DNA from: a virus
Taxonomy: Duplodnaviria; Caudoviricetes
Virus record (IMG/VR): IMGVR_UViG_3300012878_000049
Span: 1 to 52,569 of that record
Length of the DNA stretch: 52,569 bases
Strand: one strand, 5' to 3'
Positions 1,395-22,319 of this stretch are shown here, in pieces. Position numbers and translations under genes: made by a program. The notes below the pieces were generated by a model. That model was not told the DNA's origin, did no database searches, and saw only the letters and a program-made list of their open reading frames with translations. Numbering within the stretch: the stretch's first letter is position 1; every line of letters begins with the position of its first letter.

Positions 1395-1561
1395 GCTGCT
1401 TTCCTCGTAATCAGGCGCCACCACCATGGCCGGCGCAGTCGTTCGTTCTCGACCCTCAGCCGCTCGATCTCGTCCGCGGCGAGGGCCAGCTGGTCGCGCA
1501 GCACGTCCTTGCGCGGCTGCTTCATGCGGCGTGGTGGGCGAGGGAATAGCTGGTCGGTCAT
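1391..1561 (-). CDS. Small coiled-coil phage hypothetical protein
   Basis: ATGA overlaps at both ends; ends LRRPWWWRLITRKAA. Confidence 0.65.
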   Translation of the reverse strand: MTDQLFPRPPRRMKQPRKDVLRDQLALAADEIERLRVENERLRRPWWWRLITRKAA

Positions 1562-1857
1562 TGAGGTACGCTCCCTAGAACACACACGAGAGCGCCGGCA
1601 TGCACACCGAAGGAAATTTCAGACTGGTCGCCGTAGTGGGGCAGGCGATCGACGATCCGCGCAAGTGGCATGCGGCCGGATTCGTCCACGCTGCCGGCGA
1701 AGACGATGCCGTCGAAATGGTAAAGGCGGGCGACACCTTCCCCTCGCGAGAGGATGCTGTGCAGGGCGGCATCGACGCTGCACGAGCCTTGGCGAAGACG
1801 CTTGACCCGGACGACACGTATGCCAAGAGGCGAGCGGAACTCGGGCTGTAGCGTCAC
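1558..1857 (-). CDS. Operon-strand bridging ORF overlapping an antisense gene
   Basis: GTG start overlaps the methylase TGA (GTGA); stop overlaps the next ATG (ATGA). Confidence 0.4.
   Translation of the reverse strand: MTLQPEFRSPLGIRVVRVKRLRQGSCSVDAALHSILSRGEGVARLYHFDGIVFAGSVDESGRMPLARIVDRLPHYGDQSEISFGVHAGALVCVLGSVPQ
1600..1851 (+). CDS. Antisense accessory hypothetical protein (83 aa)
   Basis: Protein-like composition; TACGCT -10-like element at 1567-1572. Confidence 0.65.
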   Translation: MHTEGNFRLVAVVGQAIDDPRKWHAAGFVHAAGEDDAVEMVKAGDTFPSREDAVQGGIDAARALAKTLDPDDTYAKRRAELGL

Positions 1858-4418
1858 GCCGCCTTCTCCAGATCCGGCGCCGCCGCTTCCAGCGCGTCGA
1901 ACAAGCCGGGCATCGACTGATCTCGCGCCACGCTCGCGCAGTAGGCCGCGGCATCGAGGAAGTACTTGGGATTCAGTTCGGACGCGTAGCCGCGGCGTCC
2001 CATCTTCAGGGCCATGTAGGGCACGGTCCCGATACCGCCGAACGGATCGAGCACCAGCTCGCTGGCCATGCAGTGCTGCTCGATGCAGCGCTCGACGATG
2101 TCGAACTGCAGCGGGCAGAGGTGCTGCTCCTGCCCCTTGTGCGCCTGGTGGCTGTTAAGCGTGCGCATGCGCGTGATGTCGGTCCAGACATCCGGGTGCC
2201 ACGACTGCGGCTGCAGCAGCATGAAGGACGACGGCAGCCAGCCGGACTCGGCGACGCGCTCGGCGATGCGCACATCGTGGCGGAAGTCGTAGACGCTCTC
2301 CAGGCTGTGCCGGCGGAACAGCTTGAAGATCGCCGCCTGGTCGAGGCCGTCGAGCATCTCCGGAGCCAGCGGACGGTCGCCGCTGGAGCGCCAGAACCCA
2401 TGCGCGTCGAACTGCCAGCGGGGGCGGGTGAACGTCGACTTGTCCTTCGCGACCGGGATGTCGGCGTAGCCGTTGGCCAGATCGCTGGGCGGCTTCCGGA
2501 ACTTCAGCACGTACTCCGGCATGCCGTTGCCCATGCGCGAGCCGTCCTTGCACTGCTCCGACCAGCCGAGACGGTAGGTCTGGCTGTTCTCGCGCACCAC
2601 GTCGGTCACGATGGTGACACGCGACAGGAACGCGAACCCATGCCTCTGGAATGCGGCGATGCACTCGTCCGAGAACGGCTGCACCGTCTGGAAGCCGAGG
2701 CCGTTGATGCCGCCCGGGGTGATCCGGTCTTTGACGTGGATGCAGGCGACGCGGCCGGGCTTCAGCACGCGCAACAGGTTCGGGATCAGGAAATCCATCT
2801 GCTGCCAGAAGTGCCCGTTGTTGTCGGTGTGGCCGAAGTCGTTGTAGCTGGGGGTGTACTCGTACTGCGTGGCGAACGGAATGCTCGTCACGATCAGGTC
2901 GACGCTGTCGGCGTCCATGCGCGCGGTTTCGAGCACGCAATCGTTATTCACCATCGTGTAGCCGTCGCCCGCGGCCTCGACGCGTTCGACGCCGAGCGAT
3001 CGTGCCAGCATGCCGGCCATCGAAGCGTGCGAGAGACCGTACTCGCGGATGATCTGGGTCATCTTGTCCACCATGTCGTTGTGTTGGCGCCAGCGGCGCT
3101 CGAGCAGCCGGCGCATGTCGCGCTCGGCTTCCGTATAGATCAGATCGATGCGGACTTCGTGCGTCTGCATGAAGCGGTAGAGCCGGTGGATCGACTGGAT
3201 CCAGTCGGCGAACTTGAAGCCGATGCCGAGGTAGATCGACCAGTGGCAGTGGCGCTGGAAATTGCAGCCGGATCCGAGCATCACGGGCTTACCGGCCAGC
3301 TCCTGGATCTCGCCTTCGCTGAACTTGATGACGAGCGACTCGCGGTGATCCAGCTCCTGCGAGCCGTACACCGTCGCCAGCCCGGGGATCTCACGCTCCA
3401 GCGCCTCGCGCTCAGACTCGAGGTCGTGCCAGAGGATCCGGTGCGCGTCGGGATCTTCCGCGCGCAACTCCATCAGCTTGGCCAGCCGCGTCGGCAGGCT
3501 GTCGCGCTTCTCGCGCGCGGCCTCCTGCAGCCCGAGCGATGTCGACCGGAACAGCCGCGCCTGCCCATCCTTCTCGACGCCGGCGGCGCCGTGGTCGGTC
3601 GCGACTTCGTGCCAGCGCACATCCAGCGGCGGGAGGTCGTAGCCCTCATCGCTGAAGCTGGGATCGAGATCCGACGGCTTCTGGATGAAGAGCGCCCAGC
3701 TGGCGACCCAGAGCCAGAACTCGCGCTCCTTGTGCGGATGCAGAGTCAGCTGATCGGCCTTTTCGCTATTGCGCTTGAAGAACCGGGTCTTCGCCTGGCC
3801 CACATCCATGATCCCGAGGAACGCGGCGTAGGCGAGCAGCTCGATGTATTCGTTCGGGCTGGGTGTCGCGGTCGCGACGAATCGATAAGGGATGCCGGCG
3901 GACTTCACGCCTGCAGCGCGATCGTCGCCGGCAATCGTGGCCATGAACTCGCGGAAGGTCTTCGAGCCGCCGAAGCCACGCAGGATTGCGGCCTCGTCCA
4001 GGCTGACCGCGACGAACGCGCGCGGGTCGAGCTTCCCGTCGCGCACCGTCTCGTAGTTGGTGAGGTAGATGCCGCGCGGGTCCGTGGCTTCCTCAATCGT
4101 GCGGATGAACTTCACCGGGACGCCGAGCATCGCCGCGTCGCGCACGAACTCCTGCCTCACGCCGAGCGGAATCACGATCAGGCCCATGCCGAACGCGCGC
4201 TCGGCGCCGATGCGCACGGCCTCGATCTGCATCACCGACTTGCCGAGCCCGAACGCAGCGAACAGTGCGCGGCGCCCGCCGTCGACAGCCCACTGCACCG
4301 CTGCGCGCTGGTGCTGTTTCAGGATCGCGCTGATCTCCGCCGGCATTACCTGGACGCCGGTGCGCGGCGCGACCGCGGCCTTCGCGCGCAGGAACTGGTC
4401 GTAGTCGAGGAGGTTCAA
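1854..4418 (-). CDS. SF2/SNF2-like helicase fused to N4/N6 DNA methyltransferase
   Basis: FGLGKS Walker A, DEAA, ATATP, GCNFQ and HRLYRF helicase motifs; C-term VTSIPF, HLCPLQ and VLDPFGGIGT SAM-binding motif. Confidence 0.9.
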   Translation of the reverse strand: MNLLDYDQFLRAKAAVAPRTGVQVMPAEISAILKQHQRAAVQWAVDGGRRALFAAFGLGKSVMQIEAVRIGAERAFGMGLIVIPLGVRQEFVRDAAMLGVPVKFIRTIEEATDPRGIYLTNYETVRDGKLDPRAFVAVSLDEAAILRGFGGSKTFREFMATIAGDDRAAGVKSAGIPYRFVATATPSPNEYIELLAYAAFLGIMDVGQAKTRFFKRNSEKADQLTLHPHKEREFWLWVASWALFIQKPSDLDPSFSDEGYDLPPLDVRWHEVATDHGAAGVEKDGQARLFRSTSLGLQEAAREKRDSLPTRLAKLMELRAEDPDAHRILWHDLESEREALEREIPGLATVYGSQELDHRESLVIKFSEGEIQELAGKPVMLGSGCNFQRHCHWSIYLGIGFKFADWIQSIHRLYRFMQTHEVRIDLIYTEAERDMRRLLERRWRQHNDMVDKMTQIIREYGLSHASMAGMLARSLGVERVEAAGDGYTMVNNDCVLETARMDADSVDLIVTSIPFATQYEYTPSYNDFGHTDNNGHFWQQMDFLIPNLLRVLKPGRVACIHVKDRITPGGINGLGFQTVQPFSDECIAAFQRHGFAFLSRVTIVTDVVRENSQTYRLGWSEQCKDGSRMGNGMPEYVLKFRKPPSDLANGYADIPVAKDKSTFTRPRWQFDAHGFWRSSGDRPLAPEMLDGLDQAAIFKLFRRHSLESVYDFRHDVRIAERVAESGWLPSSFMLLQPQSWHPDVWTDITRMRTLNSHQAHKGQEQHLCPLQFDIVERCIEQHCMASELVLDPFGGIGTVPYMALKMGRRGYASELNPKYFLDAAAYCASVARDQSMPGLFDALEAAAPDLEKAA

Positions 4419-4717
4419 GCGGCCTCCTGCATCAGCGCGGCCAGATCGATCTCGTCGACGGCCTCACGCAACTGCCGGCGGGCGGCCAGCAGCACGCGCG
4501 CGATGTGCTCGCGCGGCGTGTCGACGGAGAAGCCGCGGTAGGCGAAATGCAGCCGCCCCGTGTGGTCGCGGCGGAACAGGCGCCATTCCACCGCTGCCGG
4601 CGGCAGGCCGCCGCGCGCCGACGGGAAGCGGCCCCAGCTGAAGCCCCTGTTCTTGCGCGGCGCGCGGCGACCTAAGTGGGCTACGCTGCGTAGGGTCACA
4701 GACATGGAGGGCTTCAT
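4415..4717 (-). CDS. Phage hypothetical protein
   Basis: Coupled overlaps with neighbours in the leftward operon. Confidence 0.6.
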   Translation of the reverse strand: MKPSMSVTLRSVAHLGRRAPRKNRGFSWGRFPSARGGLPPAAVEWRLFRRDHTGRLHFAYRGFSVDTPREHIARVLLAARRQLREAVDEIDLAALMQEAA

Positions 4718-4986
4718 GACCGATCACCTATGCGAGAAGTGCACTCAAATCGCCGCGTCTCCCAATAAAAACTGGCCGCTATCCGGCTTTCTGCAGAACG
4801 GATTCCAACGGGAACCAATCGGCTGGGAGCACGTGCCGCTGCTTTGCGACGACTGTGGAGCGAGGTGGACCAGATCGACGTACCGGCCGGATGGCGCCGT
4901 GAGCTGGTCACGGAGGTAGCCATGCATCGGCGAACTTGGGGAGGCTCGGCGCGGTACTGAGACAGATCGCTGCTGTGCTTAAGCAT
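4714..4986 (-). CDS. Operon-strand bridging ORF overlapping an antisense gene
   Basis: Start overlaps the J-domain gene stop by 8 nt; stop overlaps the next ATG (ATGA). Confidence 0.35.
   Translation of the reverse strand: MLKHSSDLSQYRAEPPQVRRCMATSVTSSRRHPAGTSIWSTSLHSRRKAAARAPSRLVPVGIRSAESRIAASFYWETRRFECTSRIGDRS
4716..4919 (+). CDS. Antisense zinc-ribbon mini-protein (67 aa)
   Basis: GGAGG SD; CEKC...CDDCG cysteine pairs; TACGCT at 4682-4687. Confidence 0.65.
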   Translation: MTDHLCEKCTQIAASPNKNWPLSGFLQNGFQREPIGWEHVPLLCDDCGARWTRSTYRPDGAVSWSRR

Positions 4987-5617
4987 GCGTGCCAGTCTCC
5001 TTCTGGTAGGCCGCCCATGCAGCCTCTACCTTCGCGAACTCGGCATCGCTGCCGCCGCGATCAGGATGTGCCTGGGAGCGGAGGCGGCGATAGCTGCCGA
5101 GCGGATCGGCGGGGTCGAGCACGTCGCGCCACGACAGCGCGACCGGCGACGGCAGAGCGGTGAAGCCGGAGAACGCACGCTCGAGGATGGTGGCGCCGCC
5201 GTGCCGCTCGATCGCACGCATGGCATCCAGCGTCGCCGCGACCGCCGCGAGGTTGTCTGCGACGCGGTCGTAGCGGTCGATCGCCATGCACTTCGGCGGC
5301 TGGCTGCGGTCGAATCGATCCGACCAGTAGACGGCGACGCCCGGGTCAGCCGGCTCCGCCTGGTTGCTTCGGGGGAAACCATCGAGGCGCAGCTGCAGGT
5401 TGGTGCTGATCACCAGGTCATCGGATGCGATGCCCATGCGGTCCAGCTCAAGGCGCACACGCTCGACGGCCTCAGAGATGGTGAGCTGCCGCTGGTTGTC
5501 CCAGCCACCGCCGGCGCGCGCGCGGGACGCCTTGCGGAAGCGGGAGCGATCGCGCGCGCCCGCGGGGGTACGCTTCCAGCCTGTCGGCCAGGTGAGGGGG
5601 TAGGCGGGGATGGCCAT
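4979..5617 (-). CDS. Phage protein with C-terminal DnaJ-like J domain
   Basis: YRRLRSQAHPDRGGSDAEF containing the HPD motif. Confidence 0.8.
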   Translation of the reverse strand: MAIPAYPLTWPTGWKRTPAGARDRSRFRKASRARAGGGWDNQRQLTISEAVERVRLELDRMGIASDDLVISTNLQLRLDGFPRSNQAEPADPGVAVYWSDRFDRSQPPKCMAIDRYDRVADNLAAVAATLDAMRAIERHGGATILERAFSGFTALPSPVALSWRDVLDPADPLGSYRRLRSQAHPDRGGSDAEFAKVEAAWAAYQKETGTHA

Positions 5618-6540
5618 CAGCCTTTACCCCCGTCCTGTACGATCGCGCCCGCCTCGGTCGCGCCGTCGGGCGCCGCTCCGGTCAGGTTCGGTTCGGCGGC
5701 CGGCTGGGGCGCGGCGGCGAACTCGACGAGAGTCACGCACCCTTCGTCCGGATAGTCCGGGTTGAAAACGTGCAGGCCATAGGGGCCGGTTGCGTCGGCG
5801 TCCGTTTCCTCCCCGTCAAGTGCGATACGACCCACAACGAGCGTGGCGCCGGCATAGCGGTCGTCAACGTCCTCCGCGTCGGGGTCGTTCGTGACCTGCG
5901 CGAGGAAGTTCTCCACGTCTTCAGGTGCCAGCGCCATCTGCACAGGAACCAGCGCGTAACCCTCCGGCACCACCGCCACGGGTGCGGCCACCTGTTCGGA
6001 TGGTGCGGGCAAGGGATCATCCTCGAAGTCGTACAGGCTGCGAGGTGATGCGGATGGTGCGGGCTGGGTGGATAGGGCGGCGTCGCACTGGTCTGCTATC
6101 CGACGCAGCATGCGCTTCACGGCATCGTGGTCGCCGGACAGCGTGTCAGCGAAGGAGCCGCGCAGGGCTTCGTCTCGCAGTTCACGCAGCGCCAGCACCG
6201 CATCACCGGCAACAGGCTGCGGGCGGTCGTAGACGCCTACGATCCGCTGCCGCGCGTCCGTCTCGTTGATCCAGTCGTTGACCAGCTGACGCGCGACCGC
6301 CCCGCCATTCGCATCGTTTGTGGTCAAGCCGTAGTGCACAGTCCCTTCGGGGTCAACGGCGAGCCAGTACGCCACCGCCTGCCCCTGCTCGCCGTCTCCG
6401 CGCAGGCGGGCGGCGATGTGCTCAAGAGCCATGCTGAAACCGTCATCGGGCGGCTGGTTCTGATCGTGGTCGTAAGCCAGATCCACCGCGCGGGTCAGCA
6501 GCTCCAGTGCCTGCGCATTCGTCATCGTGGCGGCGTTCAC
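5617..6540 (-). CDS. Phage hypothetical protein (mosaic, acidic)
   Basis: 307-aa ORF coupled to both neighbours. Confidence 0.7.
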   Translation of the reverse strand: MNAATMTNAQALELLTRAVDLAYDHDQNQPPDDGFSMALEHIAARLRGDGEQGQAVAYWLAVDPEGTVHYGLTTNDANGGAVARQLVNDWINETDARQRIVGVYDRPQPVAGDAVLALRELRDEALRGSFADTLSGDHDAVKRMLRRIADQCDAALSTQPAPSASPRSLYDFEDDPLPAPSEQVAAPVAVVPEGYALVPVQMALAPEDVENFLAQVTNDPDAEDVDDRYAGATLVVGRIALDGEETDADATGPYGLHVFNPDYPDEGCVTLVEFAAAPQPAAEPNLTGAAPDGATEAGAIVQDGGKG

Positions 6541-6713
6541 GGCTTCGTCCCCGAGCGTGCGTCGCGCTGCGCGTCATCGCGCATCGTCTGGAGCGCGTGC
6601 AGGCGGTTGCGGTCCAGCTGATCGTAACCGGCGGCCGGCGCGTGCTGGTTGACGATCGAGATCGCCCATGCGAGCGCGTCGATCTTGTCCTGAGGGTCGA
6701 TGTGTCCGCTCAT
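6537..6713 (-). CDS. Small hypothetical protein (58 aa, not in ORF track)
   Basis: Read by eye: MSGHIDPQDKIDALAWAI...GTKP; ATGA and GTGA overlaps at both ends. Confidence 0.6.
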   Translation of the reverse strand: MSGHIDPQDKIDALAWAISIVNQHAPAAGYDQLDRNRLHALQTMRDDAQRDARSGTKP

Positions 6714-7006
6714 GCGGCTTGCTCCTGAGATTCGTAGACCCAGCGGCGCACGGTCCCGAAGGGGACGCCGAGGGTTTCGCTGATGGATGCGACGGTCTTG
6801 CCGGCCGCGCGGAGTGCGCAGGCGCGGCTACGGGTGGCGTCTGGCCAGTACCTGGCGTGCGGCATGACTGGCGCAGGCGCACCGACCGACCGGGCCTTGT
6901 CCTGCACCGCGCGCGGCGTGCGGCCCAGGTCGGCGGCGGCACACAGCACGTTTCCGCCAGCGTGCGCGCGAAGGGTGGCCAGCTCGGTGGTGCGCCAGTG
7001 CTTCAT
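6710..7006 (-). CDS. HTH-containing phage protein
   Basis: Start MKHWRTTEL; C-term KTVASISETLGVPFGTVRRWV helix-turn-helix. Confidence 0.65.
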   Translation of the reverse strand: MKHWRTTELATLRAHAGGNVLCAAADLGRTPRAVQDKARSVGAPAPVMPHARYWPDATRSRACALRAAGKTVASISETLGVPFGTVRRWVYESQEQAA

Positions 7007-9799: not shown

Positions 9800-9806
9800 G
9801 TAGTCG

Positions 9807-12293: not shown

Positions 12294-12571
12294 GCCACCA
12301 CCTTCAGCGCAGTGCGCAGGCCGGCACGTTCCAGCAACTCCGCCACGCGCGCCTCGAAGTCGGCCGGCCGCTCTTCCAGCAGCGCCAGCGCCTCAGTGCC
12401 CAGCGCCAGCTTCCGAGCGTTCGCCGCGTTGCCAGCCGGGCACAGCTGCCGGCTCACGCAGCGGGCCACCTCAATCGTGCTGTCGTGGTTCCAGACCGTC
12501 ATACCGTGCGCCACGAACGGGCCGCGGGTCGGGTCGGAACTGGGGATGTGCTGGTCGGCGAGGGCGGTCAT
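12290..12571 (-). CDS. Hypothetical protein
   Basis: ATGA overlaps at both ends. Confidence 0.6.
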   Translation of the reverse strand: MTALADQHIPSSDPTRGPFVAHGMTVWNHDSTIEVARCVSRQLCPAGNAANARKLALGTEALALLEERPADFEARVAELLERAGLRTALKVVA

Positions 12572-13350
12572 GCCTGCTGCTCCGCACTGCGCCGTGTCTT
12601 CGATTCGAGATGCGCGGCAAGCTCGCTGTAGCTCTCCGCTAGCTCGGGATCGTCCGTAATGGCGGACGAGAGAAGTCGATACGAGCGCGCCAGCCTGGCG
12701 TTAGCCTTATCCTCGGCGTCATGGAATGGACCGACTGGCTGACCCTCGGAATCGCGTTGCTCGGCGCCGGCCTCGGTGTGTTCAACACCGTCAGCGGCTA
12801 CCGGCGGAAAACTCGCCGCGTCTGGCTTCGATGCGGCTTCGACAAACGCGCTCGGACCCGCGGCCAGCGCCTCTGGTGTGAGGTGGTAAACCCTGGTGGC
12901 GTACCGGTGACGGTCAGATCCGTCCGCCATCACGTCTTCGCAGAGGGCAAGCCTTACGAGATGCCGATCTACGGCGATGCTCAGCTGGAAGCTCAGCTTC
13001 GAGGCAGCTACGAACCAGGGACAGCGCGAACCGTTTTCGCATCGGCAGGCTACGAGCCACACTTTTCGATCACTCGACGCATCGAGGTCCGGACCGAGTG
13101 CGGACTGGTCGCCGTATACGCGGGCCGCAAACTCCGCCGGCTTGTAGAGGAACTCAGGCTCGCACTGGCGGCCGAATCCATATCGGCCAAGGGCTGAGCG
13201 GATACGACCGCCGGCCGCGTCGGCTAACTGGATGATGCGGACTTCGGGCCCGCGCCCATCGCGCCACAGCACATAGGTGGTAGCAGCATTCGCCAGCGCC
13301 GACGCGCTGACCGCTCCCAGAATCAACAGCTGCCCAGTCTCGGGGGACAT
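12568..13350 (-). CDS. First ORF of the leftward operon, spanning an antisense gene
   Basis: Begins just downstream of PL, has an N-terminal TM segment, and its stop overlaps the next ATG. Confidence 0.45.
   Translation of the reverse strand: MSPETGQLLILGAVSASALANAATTYVLWRDGRGPEVRIIQLADAAGGRIRSALGRYGFGRQCEPEFLYKPAEFAARVYGDQSALGPDLDASSDRKVWLVACRCENGSRCPWFVAASKLSFQLSIAVDRHLVRLALCEDVMADGSDRHRYATRVYHLTPEALAAGPSAFVEAASKPDAASFPPVAADGVEHTEAGAEQRDSEGQPVGPFHDAEDKANARLARSYRLLSSAITDDPELAESYSELAAHLESKTRRSAEQQA
12721..13197 (+). CDS. Antisense accessory protein with N-terminal TM anchor
   Basis: MEWTDWLTLGIALLGAGLGVFNT; TATCCT 7 nt before the ATG suggests a leaderless mRNA. Confidence 0.7.
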   Translation: MEWTDWLTLGIALLGAGLGVFNTVSGYRRKTRRVWLRCGFDKRARTRGQRLWCEVVNPGGVPVTVRSVRHHVFAEGKPYEMPIYGDAQLEAQLRGSYEPGTARTVFASAGYEPHFSITRRIEVRTECGLVAVYAGRKLRRLVEELRLALAAESISAKG

Positions 13351-13407
13351 CCGTCTGCGTCCAATGCCCCGGCTCGTCGTGAGCTGTGTCGTGGGGCGAT
13401 GGACGCA

Positions 13408-13446
13408 GTAAACCATCGTTTACAAAAAAGGTCAACAACAATTTAC
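13408..13446 (-). promoter_or_regulatory. OL operators (2 x 16 bp) overlapping the PL-like promoter
   Basis: GTAAACCATCGTTTAC at 13408-13423 and GTCAACAACAATTTAC at 13431-13446; minus strand reads TTGACC-17-TTTACT. Confidence 0.8.
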
Positions 13447-14657: not shown

Positions 14658-14668
14658 GGTCGAACGAG

Positions 14669-14694: not shown

Positions 14695-14700
14695 GTGGCA

Positions 14701-15045: not shown

Positions 15046-15064
15046 CCTTGAATCCTCAGTCGGT

Positions 15065-15448
15065 TCAACAAGCAGGCAAGCAGTCCGCCAGGCTCGCGCC
15101 CATTTCTGCAGCGTCCACATAGCCGTGCATTCGGTCAAGCAGGTCTTCGAGTTGAGGGTCTGTGAGGTCGGACATGTACTGAACGCCCTTCATTTCCAAG
15201 AAATGGGTGATCGCTGATTTCCAGTTGTGAGTATCAGCAATACGGACAACTGCGCGCATGGTCTTTGCTCGGTCCGAAACATCAACCGGCTGAAATTCTG
15301 CGTCTTCCAGAGAGCGGCGTTCTGATGCTGGCTGCTTAGCCGGCTTTTCGCTTCCGACCAGCCGCAACTCGGTCTTTTCCCCCAGCTTCCGCCTGGCGCG
15401 AAGAGCGATCAGCTCCGCCATCCGATCCAGCCTTTCCGACCTTTCCAT
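15065..15448 (-). CDS. Hypothetical protein downstream of cI
   Basis: AGGAG/AAGG SD upstream; overlaps the cI 3' end. Confidence 0.7.
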   Translation of the reverse strand: MERSERLDRMAELIALRARRKLGEKTELRLVGSEKPAKQPASERRSLEDAEFQPVDVSDRAKTMRAVVRIADTHNWKSAITHFLEMKGVQYMSDLTDPQLEDLLDRMHGYVDAAEMGASLADCLPAC

Positions 15449-15890
15449 CCACCTTCTCCTTCCGCGATTTGAACTTGAGCGCAAAGCGCTCTACATCGCT
15501 GTCGGAGACGGCTTCGATGTTCTGGTCTAAAACCTCATCGATCGCCAGCGCGAAAAATTCAGCGTCATCCTCGGTCTCTATGGCGAAGTGGCCGCCGCCT
15601 CCCTTGAGGGAAGCTCCGGTTGCCAAATGGACAGCGGCGGCAATCGTGTCCTTAGACAGTCGCGCAGGCTGAGACGTTTGCCGAACCGGCCCCTTGCCGG
15701 TGATCAGCCATTCCAGATTGACTCCGTAGTGCCTGCTCCAGTTGTAGAGGAACAGGCCGCCAGGGACCTTCGTGACGCCCTTTTCAATTTGGGACGTACT
15801 TTGCTTGGTCGTACCCGCGATCTTCCCGGCCTGCTCTAACGTCAGGCCAGCACCATCCCGCAGTTCTTGAAGTCTTTTGCCTACGCTCAT
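15336..15890 (-). CDS. cI: CI-like XRE HTH repressor lacking an S24 peptidase domain
   Basis: GKRLQELR..AGLTLEQAG..TKQSTSQIEKG..VNLEWLITGKG; divergent from cro. Confidence 0.85.
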   Translation of the reverse strand: MSVGKRLQELRDGAGLTLEQAGKIAGTTKQSTSQIEKGVTKVPGGLFLYNWSRHYGVNLEWLITGKGPVRQTSQPARLSKDTIAAAVHLATGASLKGGGGHFAIETEDDAEFFALAIDEVLDQNIEAVSDSDVERFALKFKSRKEKVDGKVGKAGSDGGADRSSRQAEAGGKDRVAAGRKRKAG

Positions 15891-15961
15891 GTCAATCAGT
15901 GTTGACTGAGGCGGGTAAATAGTGGTTGACCTCCTGCCGTAAACGATGGTTTACTGCGCCA
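15891..15961 (+). promoter_or_regulatory. OR: three 16-bp operators at 24-bp period with a PR-like promoter
   Basis: GTMAA-N6-TTKAC at 15891-15906, 15915-15930 and 15939-15954; TTGACC-18-TTTACT. Confidence 0.85.
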
Positions 15962-16177
15962 ATGAACGAACCCCTGACGAAGAAGGCAGTACGCGAGGCT
16001 CTCGGTTTTCAGTTTGACCGTGAGCTGGCCCAGTTCTTTGACACCACGAAGCAGGCGGTCAGCCGCTGGGGTGAGGACGAGCCGCTGCCTGACGGTCGTC
16101 AGTGGCAGGCGAGGGCGCTCCGCCCCGACGTTTTTGGAGTGGCGCCGTCCTCGGCCGTGCGTCAGGAGGCCGCATAA
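15962..16177 (+). CDS. cro: Cro-like repressor
   Basis: ELAQFFDTTKQAVSRWG..LPDGRQWQ; position divergent from cI. Confidence 0.85.
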   Translation: MNEPLTKKAVREALGFQFDRELAQFFDTTKQAVSRWGEDEPLPDGRQWQARALRPDVFGVAPSSAVRQEAA

Positions 16178-16378
16178 ATGGCCGCTCGCGACTTCACCCG
16201 CTTCGAGCCGAATCCCGACGAGTCCGTCGAGGCCGTGGCCGCGATCATCACAGTCTGGGCCAACGAGCGGAACCTCACCGGCGCCCAAGTCCGCATGATC
16301 TTCGAGGGCGGAATGCTCGCCTCGCGCGCATTCCTGACCGATCTGATGCCCGCGGAGTTCAGCGGGGAGGGCGGCTAG
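16178..16378 (+). CDS. Hypothetical protein
   Basis: GGAGG SD; abuts the cro stop. Confidence 0.6.
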   Translation: MAARDFTRFEPNPDESVEAVAAIITVWANERNLTGAQVRMIFEGGMLASRAFLTDLMPAEFSGEGG

Positions 16379-16587
16379 ATGAGCCTGAATTTCCGCCCGG
16401 TCTCGATCCCGACCCATCCGTCCTCTGACGGGTTGAGGTGCTCGCCGTCCAGCGTCCGATACGTCGGCAGGGACGTGAAGCTTGCCGCACCCCGGAAGGT
16501 GCTGGCGTCCCTCTGCGAAGTGGTGCGGACGATCTTCGTCGCGTTGCCGCTCTCGTCCTCGGCGTCCAGCCTTTCGACCTTGCTCAT
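16375..16587 (-). CDS. Antisense accessory hypothetical protein (70 aa)
   Basis: CAGGAGGCCGAC-ATG; TAGGCT -10-like element at 16624-16629. Confidence 0.7.
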   Translation of the reverse strand: MSKVERLDAEDESGNATKIVRTTSQRDASTFRGAASFTSLPTYRTLDGEHLNPSEDGWVGIETGRKFRLI

Positions 16588-16690
16588 GTCGGCCTCCTGC
16601 GGCCTCTCGGTTGTGGTATCGGGAGCCTACCGCAGGAGTGCCGGCGCCTACCGCGGCGCGCCCGCTGCCGACCAAGCCAAGGCCGCCTGA
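16379..16690 (+). CDS. Operon-strand bridging ORF
   Basis: ATG abuts the previous TAG; stop is 1 nt before the next ATG. Confidence 0.4.
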   Translation: MSLNFRPVSIPTHPSSDGLRCSPSSVRYVGRDVKLAAPRKVLASLCEVVRTIFVALPLSSSASSLSTLLMSASCGLSVVVSGAYRRSAGAYRGAPAADQAKAA

Positions 16691-16691
16691 C

Positions 16692-17171
16692 ATGCCCCTC
16701 GACTGGCTACGGCGCCTGATCCGCCGTTCCGCACCCAAGCCGATCGGGTTCCTTCCGGTGGTGATTCCGGATGGAGTCGCGGTCGCCCTGGTGTATCCCG
16801 GCCACCTCAATCCGGCCCAGCGCCAAGCGGTGCAGGCACACCTCGATGCATGGGCGAAGCCGAGAGGGATCAGCCCGATCGTGCTTGAGGGCGGCCTGCA
16901 GGTGCAGCTATCGCCGGTCCTAGGCGCTCGTGACAAATTCTTCGCCGGCGTCTTGGCTTCGGGATCGATTCTTACCCGGGCCCAAGTCAGGGCGTTCGAG
17001 GAGCGTAGCGCTCCACCTTCTCCGTCAGGAGACCCATCTGCCGAGTCAGCTCCGGACGGGTTTGATCCTCGCGGCCCGATCGCGCCTTCGCCTCCATCGA
17101 CTTTGCTGCCATCAACGAAACGAGCCGATCCCACTGGTCGCGAAGAGCAGTCGGGTGAGGATGCGTCGTGA
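16692..17171 (+). CDS. Hypothetical protein whose C-terminal part bridges an antisense gene
   Basis: Start MPLDWLRR; stop overlaps the next GTG/ATG. Confidence 0.5.
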   Translation: MPLDWLRRLIRRSAPKPIGFLPVVIPDGVAVALVYPGHLNPAQRQAVQAHLDAWAKPRGISPIVLEGGLQVQLSPVLGARDKFFAGVLASGSILTRAQVRAFEERSAPPSPSGDPSAESAPDGFDPRGPIAPSPPSTLLPSTKRADPTGREEQSGEDAS

Positions 17172-17280
17172 TGAGCGCTTCGAGCATCAAGCCTTGCGCA
17201 AGCGTTTTCGCTTGCAGGTGTGCAATCGCAGTCGTTGTCTCCGCGACCCACTGCATCTCGTCCGAGTTCATTTCGTCCAT
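16987..17280 (-). CDS. Antisense accessory hypothetical protein (97 aa)
   Basis: GGAGGCGGAC-ATG; TAGGAT at 17320-17325; helical protein-like sequence. Confidence 0.7.
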   Translation of the reverse strand: MDEMNSDEMQWVAETTTAIAHLQAKTLAQGLMLEALITTHPHPTALRDQWDRLVSLMAAKSMEAKARSGREDQTRPELTRQMGLLTEKVERYAPRTP

Positions 17281-17620
17281 GTCCGCCTCCGGTAGTGATC
17301 GGGTGTCTCAGCAACACCAATCCTATCGGCAGGCGGGCGCCTACCTCTCGCCGGTCATCAGCTTGGACAGGCCGATGACGCGCGCGGCCCGATCGGGTGG
17401 CATCTCCGCGGTCAGTTCCAAAAGCGCCTCGCTGACCTCCATCGAGAAACGGGGATCTGCCATGGCTCTTCGTGCCAGGGCAGACAAGACCCCCTCCATT
17501 GCCGTCATCAGCAGCAGCATCTCGAGCTTCAGCTCTTTGTCGTCCATGTCGCCCTCCGTGCGGGCTGTGTCTGTGGCCAGCGCAGCGTACCGCAGGGCGG
17601 GCGGCGCCTTTCTTCCCTGA
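17168..17620 (+). CDS. Operon-strand bridging ORF (Ser-rich)
   Basis: Start overlaps the previous stop; ends 70 nt before cII; shadow-like composition. Confidence 0.3.
   Translation: MMSASSIKPCASVFACRCAIAVVVSATHCISSEFISSMSASGSDRVSQQHQSYRQAGAYLSPVISLDRPMTRAARSGGISAVSSKSASLTSIEKRGSAMALRARADKTPSIAVISSSISSFSSLSSMSPSVRAVSVASAAYRRAGGAFLP
17341..17547 (-). CDS. Antisense accessory hypothetical protein (68 aa)
   Basis: GGAGGGCGAC-ATG; TACGCT at 17584-17589. Confidence 0.65.
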   Translation of the reverse strand: MDDKELKLEMLLLMTAMEGVLSALARRAMADPRFSMEVSEALLELTAEMPPDRAARVIGLSKLMTGER

Positions 17621-17689
17621 TTCGATCGTCTCCATGGCCGGCATCGTCCGGCATGGCGGCTCCCAGAACCACGTTCAGCGAGTTCCCCA

Positions 17690-18139
17690 ATGAACATCAC
17701 CGACGCCGCGCACAAGACCGTCAAGGACTATCCCGGTGGCAGCGAGGCTCTTGCGCCTCGGATCGCCATATCTGCGGCAGTGCTGCGCAACAAGGTCAAT
17801 CCCAACAACTCGACGCACCACCTGACCCTGGCCGAGGCCAGCGAGATCATGGGCGTCACCGGTGACCACCGCATGCTGCACGCGCTGGCGGCCGAGCACG
17901 GCTACACGCTGCAGGCCACAGACGCGCCCAACGTCAACACGATCATGTGCGCGATGCTGGCGGCATCTGCGGCGAAGGGCGATCTCGCATCGATTCTCGC
18001 CCAGTCGTTGGCGGACAACCGAATCACGCCGAACGAGGCTGCTGACATCGCTCGGGCGTGCGCTGCAGTCCAGGCGGCGATGACCGAGGTCAGCCGCCAC
18101 GCGAACGCCAAGGCAGCGGCGGGGCTGGTGCAGGCGTGA
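17690..18139 (+). CDS. cII: Phage regulatory CII-family protein
   Basis: DYPGGSEALA..VLRNKVNPN..HHLTLAEA..TGD. Confidence 0.85.
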   Translation: MNITDAAHKTVKDYPGGSEALAPRIAISAAVLRNKVNPNNSTHHLTLAEASEIMGVTGDHRMLHALAAEHGYTLQATDAPNVNTIMCAMLAASAAKGDLASILAQSLADNRITPNEAADIARACAAVQAAMTEVSRHANAKAAAGLVQA

Positions 18140-18282
18140 GCACTAACGCGCGTTATTCCCACGGAGCGCGGAAGGGCGGGCGCAATGCGCTCATGAACGC
18201 GACTGCCCGCGCCATCCGAATCGTACGGTTCAACTGGTTCTGCAGCGGCGCCCGTCTCGAATGCGAGAGGGCGCCGCGATGA
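18136..18282 (+). CDS. Small basic hypothetical protein
   Basis: GTGA and ATGA overlaps. Confidence 0.5.
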   Translation: MSTNARYSHGARKGGRNALMNATARAIRIVRFNWFCSGARLECERAPR

Positions 18283-18524
18283 CTCAATCGTCCAATGGCG
18301 CTCGCATTGGAAAGCCGAGCACGTACTTCACAGACACGAAGCTGTCTGTGCCTTCGCTCACGCCGACGGTTCCTACAGCGATCAGGCTCCACCCCTCGTC
18401 AAGGAGTTTGTTGGCTTCGGCCTGCGTACGCGCCTCGTGCACCGAGGACATCCTAGTTAACGACTTGACGCTCATCCATGCAGCTCCTTCTGTTGGAGCC
18501 TCGAATCCTAGCGGGGTTCGGTGA
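18279..18524 (+). CDS. Operon-strand bridging ORF
   Basis: ATGA overlap upstream; GTGA overlap with the replication gene. Confidence 0.4.
   Translation: MTQSSNGARIGKPSTYFTDTKLSVPSLTPTVPTAIRLHPSSRSLLASACVRASCTEDILVNDLTLIHAAPSVGASNPSGVR
18284..18475 (-). CDS. Antisense accessory hypothetical protein (63 aa)
   Basis: AAGGAG SD; TAGGAT at 18505-18510; EANKLLDEGWSLIAV..YVLG. Confidence 0.65.
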   Translation of the reverse strand: MSVKSLTRMSSVHEARTQAEANKLLDEGWSLIAVGTVGVSEGTDSFVSVKYVLGFPMRAPLDD

Positions 18525-19327
18525 TGGCTGGCGACTGGATCAAGATGCGGACGAATCTCGCGACGAGTCCGAAAGTTGTCCGCATCGCGTCCGCATTGAA
18601 TGCGGACAGGTTGCGCGTGATCGGCGGTTTGCACGCGGTCTGGTGCCTGTTCGACGCGCACTCTGACGACGGCATGCTCACCGGATACTCTCCGGCTGTT
18701 CTGGACGATCTGATCGGATGGCCCGGTTTTTCAGCGGCCATGATTGCCGTCGAATGGATGGCGGAAGAGGCCGGAAACCTCGTCATACCGCGGTTCGAGG
18801 AGCATAACGGGGCGTCCGCAAAGCGCCGAGCGCAGGAGGCTGACAGGAAGCGAAGCGTCCGCAATCTGTCCGCATCACCGTCCGCATCGGATGCGGACAA
18901 AAAGCGGACTAGAGAAGAGAAGAGAAGAGAAGAAGAGAAAGAACCCCCTAAGCCCCCCGCTGACGCGGCGGGCGCCCCGGTGAAATCTCGAAAGACGAAG
19001 TGCACCTTCCCGACCTTCGTCCAGGACTGCCGTGAGTCTGGCGTCAAGCCGATCCCGCCTGATGACCCGATCTTCGGGTTCTGCACCGATGCGGGGATCC
19101 CGAAGGAATTCCTCGAGCTCGCCTGGCGCGAGTTCGCGCTCAAGCACCGCGATTCGGGCCGGATGCAGAAGGACTGGCGCGCCCACTTCCGCAACGCCGT
19201 GCGCGGCAACTGGCACAAGCTCTGGTGGTTCCCGAACGACGGCCAATGCGACCTGACCACCGCCGGCGTGCAGCTCAAGCGAGCCCGAGAGGCTGAGCTG
19301 GCCGCGAAGCAGGGGCAGGCCGCGTGA
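18521..19327 (+). CDS. Replication initiator protein (lambda O-position)
   Basis: AGDWIKMRTNL..PKV N-term, REEKRREE linker, DWRAHFRNAVRGNW C-term; precedes DnaB. Confidence 0.85.
   Translation: MMAGDWIKMRTNLATSPKVVRIASALNADRLRVIGGLHAVWCLFDAHSDDGMLTGYSPAVLDDLIGWPGFSAAMIAVEWMAEEAGNLVIPRFEEHNGASAKRRAQEADRKRSVRNLSASPSASDADKKRTREEKRREEEKEPPKPPADAAGAPVKSRKTKCTFPTFVQDCRESGVKPIPPDDPIFGFCTDAGIPKEFLELAWREFALKHRDSGRMQKDWRAHFRNAVRGNWHKLWWFPNDGQCDLTTAGVQLKRAREAELAAKQGQAA
18857..18944 (+). repeat. Putative replication origin: GTCCGCA iterons plus AG-rich tract
   Basis: Three direct GTCCGCA copies, inverted (T/A)GCGGAC copies, then an (AGAAG)n run inside the initiator gene. Confidence 0.6.
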
Positions 19328-20832
19328 CCGGGACTGATGACATCGATCGGTTGGAATCGTTGTACGCGGCCAGGGCGGAGCCAGCTGATCGTTCGTTGCT
19401 GCGTGTTCCGCCGCATTCGATGGAGGCTGAGCAGGCGGTGATCGGTGGCCTGATGCTGCGCCCCGATGCGCTGGCCGACGTCGGCGACCTGCTGTCGGCG
19501 TCCGACTTCTACCGGCGCGAGCACGCTGCAATTTTCGAGGCGATCCTCGACCAGAAGGCGCGCGGCAAGCCTTTCGACGCGGTGACGCTGGGCGACTGGT
19601 TTGAGACCGCCGGCAAAGCCGAGATGGTCGATAACGGCGCGTACCTGGGCGAGCTCGTGTCGACGACCGCATCGGCCGCGAACGTGCGTGCCTATGCCGA
19701 GATCGTGGCGGACAAGGCGACGCTACGGCAGGTCATTGAGGTCGGCTCGGAGATCGTTGGCATCGGGTTCGATCCGGAGGGCCGGCAGGCTGCCGAGATC
19801 GTGTCGACAGGCGCTGCGAAGTTCGCCGCGCTGACGCTTCGCGGTGCGCGCGAGGGCAGTGGGTTGCGCATGATCGGCGCGGCGATGAAGGAGGCATGGG
19901 ACGAGATCAACGGCCGCTTCGAGGGCTCGATCGAAATCGGCCTGACGCCGCCCTGGGAGAACGTGCGGGCGAAGCTGCCCGGTCTCGAGGACACGGACCT
20001 GATGGTCATTGCGGCGCGGCCAGGCATGGGCAAAACCGTGGCCGGGTTGGAGTTCGCAGACCACGCTGCACGTCAGGGCCGGAACGTCGCCTTCTTCTCG
20101 CTGGAGATGAGCCAGAAGCAGCTGGCAGTGCGGCTCGTCGCTCGCCGCGCGCGCGTCGACCAATCGCTGATGCGTCAGAAGGGCGCGCTGTCGAACGAGG
20201 ACTGGGCGGAGATCAATGGCGCCTACAAGGATCTGCGCGGTCTGCCGCTGGCGATCGATGACACCGCGGAGCTGACGATCGAGGGCATCAAGGCGCGCGC
20301 GTCCCGAATGCACGCCAAGGTGCCCGGTGGCCTCGGCCTGATCGTCGTCGACTACATGCAGCTGATCAGCGGCGATGGCCGGCATGACGACAAGCGCCAC
20401 GATGAGGTGACGAAGATCAGCCGTGGCCTGAAGCTGCTGGCCAAGGAACTGCGCAGCCCAGTCATCGCGCTGTCTCAGCTCAACCGCGGCGTCGAGGCAC
20501 GGACCGACAAGCGGCCGCAGCTTTCAGACCTGCGCGAGTCCGGTGCGATCGAGCAGGACGCCGACATCATCGCGTTCCTCTATCGCGACGATTACTACAC
20601 GAAAGAGGCGTGCGGAGCGCCGGGAATCGCGGAATTCATCATCGCGAAGCAACGCCAGGGCGCACTCGGCAAGGCATATCTCGAGCACCACCTGGAGTGC
20701 AGCCGCTTCGACGATTACCACGGCCCGACGCCCAGCTACAGCAGGAGTCGCGCGGGCAGTGCGAGCAACGACGGATTCGACGATGACCTGCCGTTGTCGG
20801 GTCGAGACCGTGCAGCTGGAGGACGCCGATGA
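19324..20832 (+). CDS. dnaB: DnaB-like replicative helicase
   Basis: PPHSMEAEQAVIG, AARPGMGKT, VDYMQL, LSQLNR, DLRESGAIEQDAD. Confidence 0.95.
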   Translation: MTGTDDIDRLESLYAARAEPADRSLLRVPPHSMEAEQAVIGGLMLRPDALADVGDLLSASDFYRREHAAIFEAILDQKARGKPFDAVTLGDWFETAGKAEMVDNGAYLGELVSTTASAANVRAYAEIVADKATLRQVIEVGSEIVGIGFDPEGRQAAEIVSTGAAKFAALTLRGAREGSGLRMIGAAMKEAWDEINGRFEGSIEIGLTPPWENVRAKLPGLEDTDLMVIAARPGMGKTVAGLEFADHAARQGRNVAFFSLEMSQKQLAVRLVARRARVDQSLMRQKGALSNEDWAEINGAYKDLRGLPLAIDDTAELTIEGIKARASRMHAKVPGGLGLIVVDYMQLISGDGRHDDKRHDEVTKISRGLKLLAKELRSPVIALSQLNRGVEARTDKRPQLSDLRESGAIEQDADIIAFLYRDDYYTKEACGAPGIAEFIIAKQRQGALGKAYLEHHLECSRFDDYHGPTPSYSRSRAGSASNDGFDDDLPLSGRDRAAGGRR

Positions 20833-21032
20833 ACCGTAACCCCGATGAGTGCGTGACCACCGCGCAGCGTGTGCAGTGGCTGCGCAGCGAAGCCGACGAC
20901 ATGGAACGCGACCTGTCGCCTCAGGAGAACCCGCACGAGTTCTGCATGCCACGGCTCATGGCTTCGACCGGCCGTGACCTCGCGCGTCGCATGGAGCGCC
21001 GGGCGGAGCACGACCAGCGTGAGGCCGCGTGA
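20829..21032 (+). CDS. Hypothetical protein
   Basis: Coupled overlaps. Confidence 0.6.
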   Translation: MNRNPDECVTTAQRVQWLRSEADDMERDLSPQENPHEFCMPRLMASTGRDLARRMERRAEHDQREAA

Positions 21033-21211
21033 TGGGCGACCGGGCATTCCGCATCCACATGGCGCGCGTGCTGCTCAACGAGTGCCGGGCGCGCCGGCAT
21101 AGCCGCGTGAACCGCGACTTCTACTGGAGCTTGTTCACGTCTGCGCAGAAGGCGCGCCGACAGGCCGCGGGCATGCGACAGCAGCCAGCGCAGGGAGGGC
21201 TGTTCGGATGA
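21029..21211 (+). CDS. Hypothetical protein
   Basis: Coupled overlaps. Confidence 0.6.
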   Translation: MMGDRAFRIHMARVLLNECRARRHSRVNRDFYWSLFTSAQKARRQAAGMRQQPAQGGLFG

Positions 21212-21744
21212 AGACTGCGGCCGCGAAGAAGATCCAGGCGAAGAGGGCGCGCCGGCCGATCTACCTGCTGGTGCGCAAGCTCGTGGACCCGGCAACCGGT
21301 GAAGAGGTCGGCGCGCTGGTGCCGGCGCATGACATCGATGCGCGCCTGCTCCGCGAGCGGAGGTTCCGCGTCGGCCGCGAGGTTCGCGCTGAGCTGAAGC
21401 AGCCGCGAAACCCGGGCTTCCACCGGCTGATGCACGCGGTCGGCAACCTGCTGGTGGACAACGTCGAAGAGTTCCGCGACCACAGCGGGCACAGCGCGAT
21501 CAAGGCCATCCAGGCGAACACCGGTGTTTGCTGCGAGCCGATGGAGATTGACCTCGGGCCTCTGGGCAAGGTGACCGCACAGGTCGCGCGCAGCTTGGCG
21601 TTCGACGAAATGGACGATGACGAATTCGGGCTGCTGTTCGAGGCCGTCACCGCGTACATCGGCGAGCACTACGCGCACGTGCTGCTCGACGACGTGCGCG
21701 CGGAGTTCTGGCAGATGGTGCAGGGCGATCGGAGGGCGGCGTGA
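21208..21744 (+). CDS. nin-region hypothetical protein (DUF1367-like)
   Basis: KQPRNPGFHR and RSLAFDEMDDDEF motifs. Confidence 0.7.
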   Translation: MKTAAAKKIQAKRARRPIYLLVRKLVDPATGEEVGALVPAHDIDARLLRERRFRVGREVRAELKQPRNPGFHRLMHAVGNLLVDNVEEFRDHSGHSAIKAIQANTGVCCEPMEIDLGPLGKVTAQVARSLAFDEMDDDEFGLLFEAVTAYIGEHYAHVLLDDVRAEFWQMVQGDRRAA

Positions 21745-22319
21745 TGAGGCTAACTCGGACGTCGGTTCACCAGGCGGTACAGCCAGCTGCTCGCATCGTG
21801 GTCGAGTCTCCTGACAGCAACAGCAGTTTGCTCGATACCTCTGACCATGTGATCAATCGCGTCGGAGAACTCGGCGGTAGCAGGCTCGCCATTTTTTGCA
21901 CCCATATTGATCGCAGAGATCAGGTCGTCGGCAAGCCTCAGCAACTCGCTCGTAAGGGTGATGTGGGGTATCAGACGGTACTCGGGGAGATCATCAAGCC
22001 TGATGGAATCCAACGTGCGGCGAGCAGAGCGTACGGATTCGGGATTGATGTGGGTGAACTGCCCGCCGAGAACCATTTCATGCACGAGCGCCGCGTCGGA
22101 CTTGATAGTCGTGACGGCGTAGTTCATCAGCGTCCGAATGGCTCTCGATCGCTTGCGGTCGAGCCTCACGTGCTGCGTGTTCGCGACCCAGATCGCGACA
22201 GCGATCGCTGCAATCGAGCCGATCGCCTGGACCCAAGCGGCCTGCCCCTCCGGCTTCAATGCACACCATCCGATCCAGCTGCAGTCCATGGCATCCCCCT
22301 GTGTGGAGCCCGAGCATGA
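21741..22319 (+). CDS. Operon-strand bridging ORF
   Basis: GTGA overlap with the upstream stop, ATGA overlap with the downstream start, 192 open codons. Confidence 0.4.
   Translation: MMRLTRTSVHQAVQPAARIVVESPDSNSSLLDTSDHVINRVGELGGSRLAIFCTHIDRRDQVVGKPQQLARKGDVGYQTVLGEIIKPDGIQRAASRAYGFGIDVGELPAENHFMHERRVGLDSRDGVVHQRPNGSRSLAVEPHVLRVRDPDRDSDRCNRADRLDPSGLPLRLQCTPSDPAAVHGIPLCGARA
21750..22289 (-). CDS. Antisense accessory protein with N-terminal TM helix
   Basis: AAWVQAIGSIAAIAVAIWVA; GGGGGA SD. Confidence 0.75.
   Translation of the reverse strand: MDCSWIGWCALKPEGQAAWVQAIGSIAAIAVAIWVANTQHVRLDRKRSRAIRTLMNYAVTTIKSDAALVHEMVLGGQFTHINPESVRSARRTLDSIRLDDLPEYRLIPHITLTSELLRLADDLISAINMGAKNGEPATAEFSDAIDHMVRGIEQTAVAVRRLDHDASSWLYRLVNRRPS

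Follow-up and report, generated by a model that had tools for sequence, protein, structure and literature searches.

Selection may keep an operon-strand frame open over antisense cargo genes at some early-operon slots of a lambdoid-style provirus

Classical lambdoid morons carry their own promoter and terminator, lie between genes and are not known to place any demand on the other strand. Within operons, an ATGA or GTGA overlap with an upstream Shine-Dalgarno (SD) sequence is the usual coupled junction, and untranslated stretches of transcript are the usual substrate of Rho. In the Pseudomonas aeruginosa phage Fc02, according to the available part of the report, gene 10 lies antisense over olg1/olg2, and one of the antisense genes transcribed in the lysogen confers superinfection exclusion (PMC9936078). 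The accessible text of a genome-wide preprint describes long antiparallel open reading frames (ORFs) that avoid stops without negative selection, and speculates on a role for translation (10.1101/724807). The window analyzed here (the whole stretch, IMG/VR provirus record IMGVR_UViG_3300012878_000049, 52,569 bp, about 66% GC and estimated to be 91% complete) contains the early region of a lambdoid-style provirus, in which eight opposite-strand cargo genes (A1 to A8, in cassettes 1 to 8) are covered by stop-free frames on the operon strand (bridging frames, B). Comparison with relatives points, with a probability of roughly 60%, to selection that keeps the operon-strand frame open where downstream genes depend on upstream transcription and translation, the purpose being the passage of ribosomes. 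Frame upkeep is clearest at 21741-22319 (cassette 8) and is probable at 12568-13416, 1558-1857 and 18261-18524 (cassettes 3, 1 and 7).

The eight opposite-strand ORFs of the original prediction, made from the window alone, are all present, and a stop-free operon-strand frame was found over every one of them (8/8). Only three pairs are codon-aligned, as had been claimed (cassettes 1, 3 and 8); cassette 2 uses the offset frame as1, and cassettes 4, 6 and 7 use the offset frame as2. Along the bridging path A5 is covered by a relay of two frames, 16692-17171 and then 17168-17620, and a third, codon-aligned frame (16930-17295) likewise covers it.

Cassette 8 lies between the DUF1367 gene (21208-21744, plus strand) and the gene for a Ref-like RecA-dependent nuclease (22316..22687, plus strand; Pfam PF16786, E = 2.3e-18), both in a nin-like block. 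Its cargo gene A8 (21750..22289, minus strand; 179 aa; phrog_33632) encodes an N-terminal Cys pair, a membrane helix and a variable C-terminal part, and its codon-aligned bridge B8 (21741..22319, plus strand) is preceded by the SD sequence GGAGGG and has no PHROG match. B8 joins its neighbours through GTGA at 21741-21744 (GTGA/TGATG on the DUF1367 stop) and ATGA at 22316-22319 on the Ref-like start. The downstream end is counted as coupled because relatives place the Ref-like start at ATG 22316, not at the longest-ORF start at 22259; they keep a motif ending in AAGCATGAAGCGCG at that start, mostly with GGAGG before it.

The relatives (L-numbered loci) with homologues of A3, A5, A6, A7 and A8 were IMG/VR contigs fetched via cII, A3 and A4. 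Both genes flanking cassette 8 occur in 28 loci (the cII-anchored loci plus the window), giving 26 distinct gaps, of which 23 measure 553-742 nt and three about 2 kb. Every short gap (n = 23) holds a minus-strand ORF of 172-232 aa, with an N-terminus that carries the shared Cys pair and membrane helix or is of another type, and with C-terminal parts that are unalignable between groups. In all 23, a single plus frame, the codon-aligned one, is free of stops; the other two contain 3-12 stops. The bridge begins within -6 to +8 nt of the DUF1367 stop in 22/23 gaps (L177 has a 10-nt overlap), follows an SD-like motif in 22/23 and ends with ATGA on the Ref-like start in 23/23, and each of the 13 distinct gap lengths leaves a remainder of 1 on division by 3. 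In pairs of loci that are 2.7-27% diverged, differences are enriched at the third position of cargo codons, with a ratio of nonsynonymous to synonymous change (pN/pS) of 0.13-0.32 for the cargo and 1.0-1.96 for the bridge, the latter resembling the values of 1.01-1.23 in antisense frames free of selection opposite cII, DUF1367, g10475 and the Ref-like gene. Translations of B8-like frames are unalignable between cargo types.

The codon-aligned antisense frame is the cheap one to hold open, because the cargo need only avoid the codons TTA, CTA and TCA. None of these was found among the 488 Leu and Ser codons (310 Leu, 178 Ser) of 17 cassette 8 cargo genes (3146 codons), in which codon bias is weak (18% A-ending codons in Val, Pro, Thr, Ala and Gly; 66 CTT and 23 TCT). 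As a control, 26 cII-upstream cargo genes of the same phages, likewise with 18% A-ending codons, use the three codons 31 times in 455, a rate that predicts 34.6 antisense stops in the cassette 8 cargo versus the 0 seen (Fisher P = 9e-11). Openness at cassette 8 thus goes beyond what composition and codon usage lead one to expect. The open, phase-matched frames, the pN/pS values and the avoidance of stop-making codons argue that selection keeps the cassette 8 frame open and in phase, with its product unconstrained.

At cassette 3, a cargo gene of 158 aa with an N-terminal membrane helix (A3, 12721..13197, plus strand; MEWTxWLTLGIA family) lies opposite the codon-aligned ORF B3 (12568..13416, minus strand), of 260 or 282 aa depending on whether it starts at ATG 13350 or ATG 13416, which ends with ATGA at 12568-12571 on gene 12290-12571. 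The A3 family has 14 distinct members, with a pN/pS of 0.37 in the cargo frame versus 1.13 in the antisense frame, and the aligned antisense frame is stop-free past A3 codon 9 in 14/14. Among seven divergent members, TTA, CTA and TCA make up 0/131 Leu and Ser codons versus 31/455 in the control (P = 5e-4), and the ATGA coupling to the next gene is seen in the window, L200 and L211. An origin of B3 as an inverted duplicate of A3 was considered and dropped, as no inverted DNA repeat was found.

Samples are smaller at cassettes 1 (one relative) and 7 (three relatives). A1 (1600..1851, plus strand; 83 aa) is listed by gene callers and is preferred by the codon model over its codon-aligned bridge B1 (1558..1857, minus strand), which scores as an antisense shadow and is joined to its neighbours by GTGA at 1854-1857 (methylase/helicase stop) and ATGA at 1558-1561 (next gene 1391-1561, whose start is confirmed by homologues that align from residue 1). 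An A1 homologue with 31.6% identity occurs among different neighbours in L255, and there too an aligned ORF runs over it, beginning with GTGA at the stop of the gene upstream and finishing with ATGA at the start of the gene downstream; in L268 the site is empty, and the genes flanking cassette 1 directly overlap each other. Of the 80 loci with a g4415 homologue, nearly every one has different genes beside it, with single comparisons only for cassettes 1 and 2. Further operon-strand ORFs ending in ATGA on the g4415 or g1391 homologue were noted in L243 (5683-6627), L272 (2431-3483), L267 (2986-3483), L278 (3010-3486) and L237 (4225-4920); the last four have a shadow-like composition (GC1 > GC3) and a codon-aligned antisense ORF inside, and that of L243 was chosen on its coupled ends only. 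These five ORFs are possible additional bridges.

At cassette 7, the cargo gene A7 (18284..18475, minus strand; 63 or 55 aa; phrog_6634) lies under the offset (as2) ORF B7 (18261..18524, plus strand), which is coupled by GTGA at 18521-18524 to the replication gene. In L146, L152 and L167 the A7 homologue is covered by an ORF whose end forms an 8-nt overlap at the ATG of the next gene, and in L146 this ORF also begins with ATGA on the cII stop. Openness is cheap at this cassette, with P(open) of 0.78-0.86 when synonymous codons are redrawn. Cassette 2 comprises A2 (4716..4919, plus strand; 67 aa, CxxC...CxxC) and the offset (as1) bridge B2 (4714..4986, minus strand), which has GGAGA before its ATG, an Arg/Ser-rich translation, an 8-nt overlap at 4979-4986 upstream and ATGA at 4714-4717 downstream; no relatives were found for comparison of this cassette. 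With relatives added, cassette 8 clearly exceeds chance by sequence comparison, and cassettes 3, 1 and 7 probably do.

Coupling of the bridging frames to both neighbours with few exceptions had been part of the original prediction, and 11 of 14 operon-strand junctions in the window do overlap, abut or leave a 1-nt gap, which is not the random end placement expected of chance shadow ORFs. The three uncoupled ends are the upstream end of B3, which has no partner and faces an AT-rich gap, the end of B6, 69 nt before cII, and the beginning of B7, 121 nt past cII.

Several observations weigh against selection for an open, translated frame, beginning with how readily such frames arise. Across 43 confident window genes (12,493 codons), the rate of antisense stops per codon is 0.005 for the aligned frame, 0.027 for as1 and 0.020 for as2. 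Pieces of these genes as long as the cargo have one or more open antisense frames in 72-87% of cases at 63-97 codons and in 47-52% at 158-179 codons. The original prediction had itself carried the caveat that high GC makes shadow ORFs common. When synonymous codons are redrawn with the cargo protein fixed, P(open) is 0.09-0.86 per designated frame (about 0.5 for B2 over A2 and about 0.46 for B4), and the joint product of 1e-4 to 1e-3 applies to frames chosen post hoc. Evidence from the window alone is weak and would read as a GC artefact. In five control families the aligned antisense frame is open in 24% to 92% of members, and in two of them it is mostly open (g10475, 24/26; g18521, 12/14). 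High openness by itself therefore has no diagnostic value, and the share of family members with an open aligned frame was dropped as sole evidence; the argument rests on the codon-matched control and the coupled ends. The two open families are homologues, in L114-L193, of the ordinary operon genes 10475-10996 and 18521-19327.

Other points on the same side concern single cassettes. A3 codon 9 is CTA or TTA in 11/14 members, a fixed stop for the B3-like ORF and therefore a poor fit to a bridge at cassette 3, and in L205, the single core locus inspected, the B3-like ORF stops 78 nt short of the next gene. A 48-codon N-terminal part of the B3-like ORF lies outside A3 and is conserved in eight relatives with a pN/pS of 0.48, which suggests a protein and not a mere spacer. 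The Ref-like start has its own SD in 16/23 cassette 8 loci, and translation from it may therefore not require coupling. The pyrimidine share of operon-strand RNA is just slightly higher over cargo (0.51-0.58) than over ordinary genes (0.45-0.52), with cassette 8 at 0.51. The relatives share kinship, for which the statistics are uncorrected apart from the picking of divergent representatives, and the choice of window frames and the leaving out of A3 codons 1-9 were defined post hoc. We infer ribosome passage and the involvement of Rho from sequence comparison.

Much of this would be expected if all operon-strand ORFs were chance shadows of a high-GC genome, with couplings supplied by common NTGA junctions and nothing selected: open antisense frames are frequent in ordinary genes, per-frame probabilities are often high, bridges score as antisense shadows without family hits, two control families are mostly open, and the cII-upstream slot described below fits this null (15/30 open). 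Chance is nevertheless a very unlikely account of the whole, as bridges recur in 22-23 of 23 cassette 8 versions despite unrelated cargo C-termini, stop-making codons are absent from 488 positions at which the control rate predicts dozens, the gaps are all 1 mod 3 with SD-like motifs before 22/23 starts, and the A1 arrangement repeats in a different context in L255.

The conserved N-terminal part of the B3-like ORF bears on a different possibility, that the operon-strand ORFs, B8, B3 and B1 at least, code for functional proteins and form true antisense pairs with the cargo, the bridge being sequence-tolerant or working through its non-overlapped ends. This part, coded past the A3 stop (window 13198-13416; L195-L206 at about 2927-3070), begins with a hydrophobic helix, and the B3-like ORF may encode a genuine small membrane protein whose tail is unconstrained. 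Gene callers chose B3 over A3, bridges start in a conserved context that includes an SD and end at a defined stop, and in Fc02 the early-operon gene antisense to exclusion genes also gave exclusion when expressed, according to the available part of that report (PMC9936078). Functional bridge proteins are nonetheless doubtful, with pN/pS over the overlap like that of unselected antisense frames (1.0-1.96 for B8, 1.13 for B3), with B8-like translations that fail to align from one cargo type to another, and with no PHROG or Pfam family for the bridge ORFs beyond a marginal PHROG match of B6 (phrog_22248, E = 0.0058).

A codon model trained on eight long window genes addressed which strand codes. 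Seven of the eight cargo ORFs score as coding, the exception being A2, for which neither strand scores; seven of the eight bridges fall in antisense shadow classes, the exception being cassette 3, where both strands are weakly positive. Seven cargo genes are backed beyond codon statistics, by homologues, PHROG hits or the CxxC..CxxC motif, and A1 by one weak homologue. Homologues in relatives were found for A3, A4, A5 (L149 and L117), A6, A7 (L146/L150, L152 and L167) and A8. The PHROG families hit by A4, A7 and A8 are of unknown function, and PADLOC returned nothing for the cargo genes or B3. A2 has neither a database hit nor relatives, and its translation carries CEKC...CDDC. With A5 alone as query nothing was found in viral contigs, and tblastn with A8 gave no match in the phage collection. 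The ESM Atlas model of A8 has a pLDDT of 0.76, and the first three of its 30 nearest clusters, all hypothetical proteins, score 0.96-0.97. For the bridge ORFs, no Pfam hit was found and tblastn hits merely mirror conservation of cargo or neighbours.

The reverse assignment, in which only the operon-strand ORFs would be real genes and the antisense genes their shadows, could draw on the textbook operon junctions of the bridges, on codon statistics that are weak on both strands in cassettes 1-3 and on the choice of B3 by automatic callers. It is hardly credible given that substitutions gather at cargo codon position 3 (cargo pN/pS 0.13-0.37), that cargo proteins form alignable families and that A2 has its CxxC pair and A8 a confident predicted fold; for A3 and A8 it is ruled out by the constraint on the cargo frame. 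Purifying selection on both frames, as in dual coding, was not found, with pN/pS low in the cargo and 1.0 or above in B8 and B3. Start/stop overlap with an SD, as in coupled operon genes, occurs at cassette 8, in the cassette 1 relative and in the cassette 7 relatives; a conserved product, also expected of such genes, was not found for the bridges. The cargo resembles morons in composition and codon usage unlike those of its neighbours (A-ending codons make up 18% versus 6% in operon genes) and in the occupation of the same slots by different cargo types. The cargo genes are real protein-coding genes, and the ORFs opposite them on the operon strand do not encode conserved proteins.

The slot upstream of cII, which holds cassettes 4 to 6, behaves differently. 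The cargo here consists of A4 (16375..16587, minus strand; 70 aa; phrog_36903, E = 1.8e-5), A5 (16987..17280, minus strand; 97 aa), which has the top codon score of all eight, and A6 (17341..17547, minus strand; 68 aa), whose start is set by a conserved SD and ATG. The chain over it begins with the offset (as2) ORF B4 (16379..16690, plus strand), which abuts the stop of 16178-16378 (TAG followed directly by ATG at 16376-16381), passes through TGAcATG at 16688-16694, with the ATG 1 nt past the B4 stop, into B5' (16692..17171, plus strand), which overlaps the 3' part of A5, and continues by GTGA at 17168-17171 into the third link, B6 (17168..17620, plus strand; as2), whose hits only shadow conserved DNA. 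A weak positive coding score was obtained in the B5' frame over 16610-16900, and no homologue of B5' was found. No minus-strand gene is listed in the approximately 400 nt between A4 and A5 (16588-16986). A long form of A6 (17341-17724) was rejected, as were long forms of A7 and A2, since the extra upstream part mirrors conserved neighbour DNA and contains stops in relatives.

Between the A6 start and cII lies a non-coding region of about 140 nt (17548-17689), present in L194, that is conserved at the DNA level in the cII-anchored relatives and contains stops in every frame in many of them. Unrelated minus-strand cargo genes all begin at one conserved SD and ATG at its edge, and the bridging chain of the window ends inside it, short of cII. 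Across 30 distinct cargo genes at this slot, the aligned frame is open in nine, as2 in nine and as1 in none, and no frame is open in 15; openness is about what composition predicts, as for chance shadows. In L194, a homologue of A4 with 70% identity keeps the abutting ORF (TAA followed directly by GTG), which ends 76 nt before cII. The conserved region is probably a divergent control region and could act as a divergent promoter/operator or as an RNA element; an Rfam search of 12400-22500 gave nothing above threshold. With what is probably its own promoter, it would free cII from any need for read-through out of cro. The comparison indicates that cassettes 4-6 are under no such constraint and that their open frames are ordinary high-GC shadows.

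The placement of all cargo inside two early operons, as first proposed, holds only in part: the ORFs exist, and the trio at 16375-17547 is not in one continuous operon, being downstream of the conserved non-coding region, which sets it apart from cII. The proposal that cargo is accepted only if ribosomes can cross it is supported at some slots and is not general, cassettes 4-6 being exempt. Aligning relatives at these slots, the check that had been suggested, gave an open coupled frame that is kept at cassette 8, agreement from fewer relatives at cassettes 3, 1 and 7, and closed frames in 15/30 at the cII-upstream slot.

Where selection does keep the frame open, the following sequence of events would account for it. 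Backward-facing accessory genes would sit between early-operon genes that need upstream transcription and translation, and one operon-strand frame would be kept stop-free, from the upstream stop behind an SD to ATGA on the downstream start. Ribosomes would cross the antisense stretch of roughly 0.2-0.7 kb, the early transcript would then not be untranslated and would be shielded from Rho-dependent polarity, and, together with or instead of this protection, delivery of ribosomes would keep the downstream gene translationally coupled. A stricter rule, that temperate phages of this group accept backward cargo into early operons only as modules whose opposite strand is translatable, phase-correct and coupled at both ends, with translation itself, rather than its product, as the target of selection, is put forward tentatively, its odds being a little short of even.

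Two supporting claims were not confirmed. A -10-like hexamer had been assigned to each cargo gene; a consensus scan of 12400-22500 gave one promoter-like site versus 1.5 expected, at no cargo gene, and terminator-like sites were at chance level with none flanking cargo, the scan being insensitive in this kind of organism. The late antisense ORF at 27327-27838, offered as a control moron without coupled cover, has five stops in that frame, the actual ORF being 27327-27590. This ORF and the other late antisense ORF, 25074-25634, score weakly or negatively for coding, lack family hits and may not be genes; 25074-25634 shares 224 nt with a plus-strand gene that scores well (24866-25297).

The gene layout was assigned from Pfam and codon statistics. 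The integrase gene (1-1188, plus strand) is followed by the leftward recombination operon (minus strand, from about 13700 to 1391), which includes the helicase/methylase gene (1854-4418, minus strand) and, also on the minus strand, genes for a YqaJ-type exonuclease, RecT and a pentapeptide protein. Beyond it lie an AntA/P63C gene (13926-14657, plus strand), a cI-like helix-turn-helix (HTH) repressor gene (15336-15890, minus strand) and cro-like genes (15926-16378, plus strand), and the plus-strand operon contains a CP76-type cII (17690-18139), the replication gene (18521-19327) and a DnaB-like gene (19324-20832). Part of the pentapeptide-repeat gene (10103-10350) is 88-91% identical in DNA to Rheinheimera/Bordetella phage pentapeptide genes and is far closer to its matches than any other stretch of the window. 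A short palindrome just past the AntA/P63C gene (14669-14694) matches many of the sampled Burkholderiales genomes at 86-100% identity, some of them on both strands, and resembles a terminator or dispersed repeat. After the Ref-like gene, a 56-aa ORF (22684-22854) matches Pfam RMF (ribosome modulation factor) with E = 1e-6, just above the curated cut-off.

Close relatives of the window as a whole were scarce. Contigs of two DNA sequencing runs are identical to it over 1500-21499, with zero variants, and a protein look-up matched the A4 and A6 cargo proteins at no less than 90% identity in a Luteimonas record. Megablast of 1-25000 against the phage collection gave short patches only, and DNA comparison with genomes taken at the level of order (401) and class (401) yielded nothing beyond gene-sized patches (cII, replication gene, antA and dnaB). 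The DnaB-like protein as query found one viral relative; its matches in genome contigs are mostly 37-54% identical, and tblastn found none of the other window genes there.

If the proposed selection is real, it would offer a simple rule by which cargo can be added on the lysogen side without breaking early-operon expression that lacks N-type antitermination, and it would explain a class of long antisense ORFs, with avoided stops and no constraint, that have puzzled genome-wide surveys. Annotators could then tell cargo from bridge by the codon-position pattern of substitutions together with depletion of TTA, CTA and TCA. Bridges would also form a standing pool of translated, unconstrained frames, raw material for overlapping or de novo genes, and one new overlapping gene may be in the making in the B3-like ORF, whose N-terminal helix is conserved.

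A full-text literature search found no description of coupled, sequence-free bridging ORFs over antisense phage cargo, and the bridging frames are filed here as a variation on known antisense-ORF phenomena. Like lambdoid morons, the cargo genes are small, of unknown function and of deviating composition, and lie between conserved phage genes; they differ in that the other strand is constrained and in that the scan, insensitive as it is, detected no promoter or terminator. Known operon coupling joins two real genes, whereas here the coupled element appears to be a frame without a conserved product over an opposite-strand gene. Fc02 shares with this provirus a temperate lifestyle, a GC-rich host and an ORF of the early lytic operon that is extensively antisense to genes with their own promoter in the lysogen; as far as the available part of that report goes, both strands there give an exclusion phenotype and are treated as functional genes, and no claim is made of selection for a sequence-free open frame, of coupling at both ends or of a comparison across cargo (PMC9936078). 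The survey of antiparallel ORFs likewise found, in its accessible text, that long ORFs opposite real genes exceed expectation and that opposite-strand stops are avoided in a subset (10.1101/724807). Unlike the frames of that survey, which in the same text are not tied to an operon context (10.1101/724807), those described here lie on the operon strand, coupled to an upstream stop and a downstream start, and recur at a fixed slot over interchangeable phage cargo.

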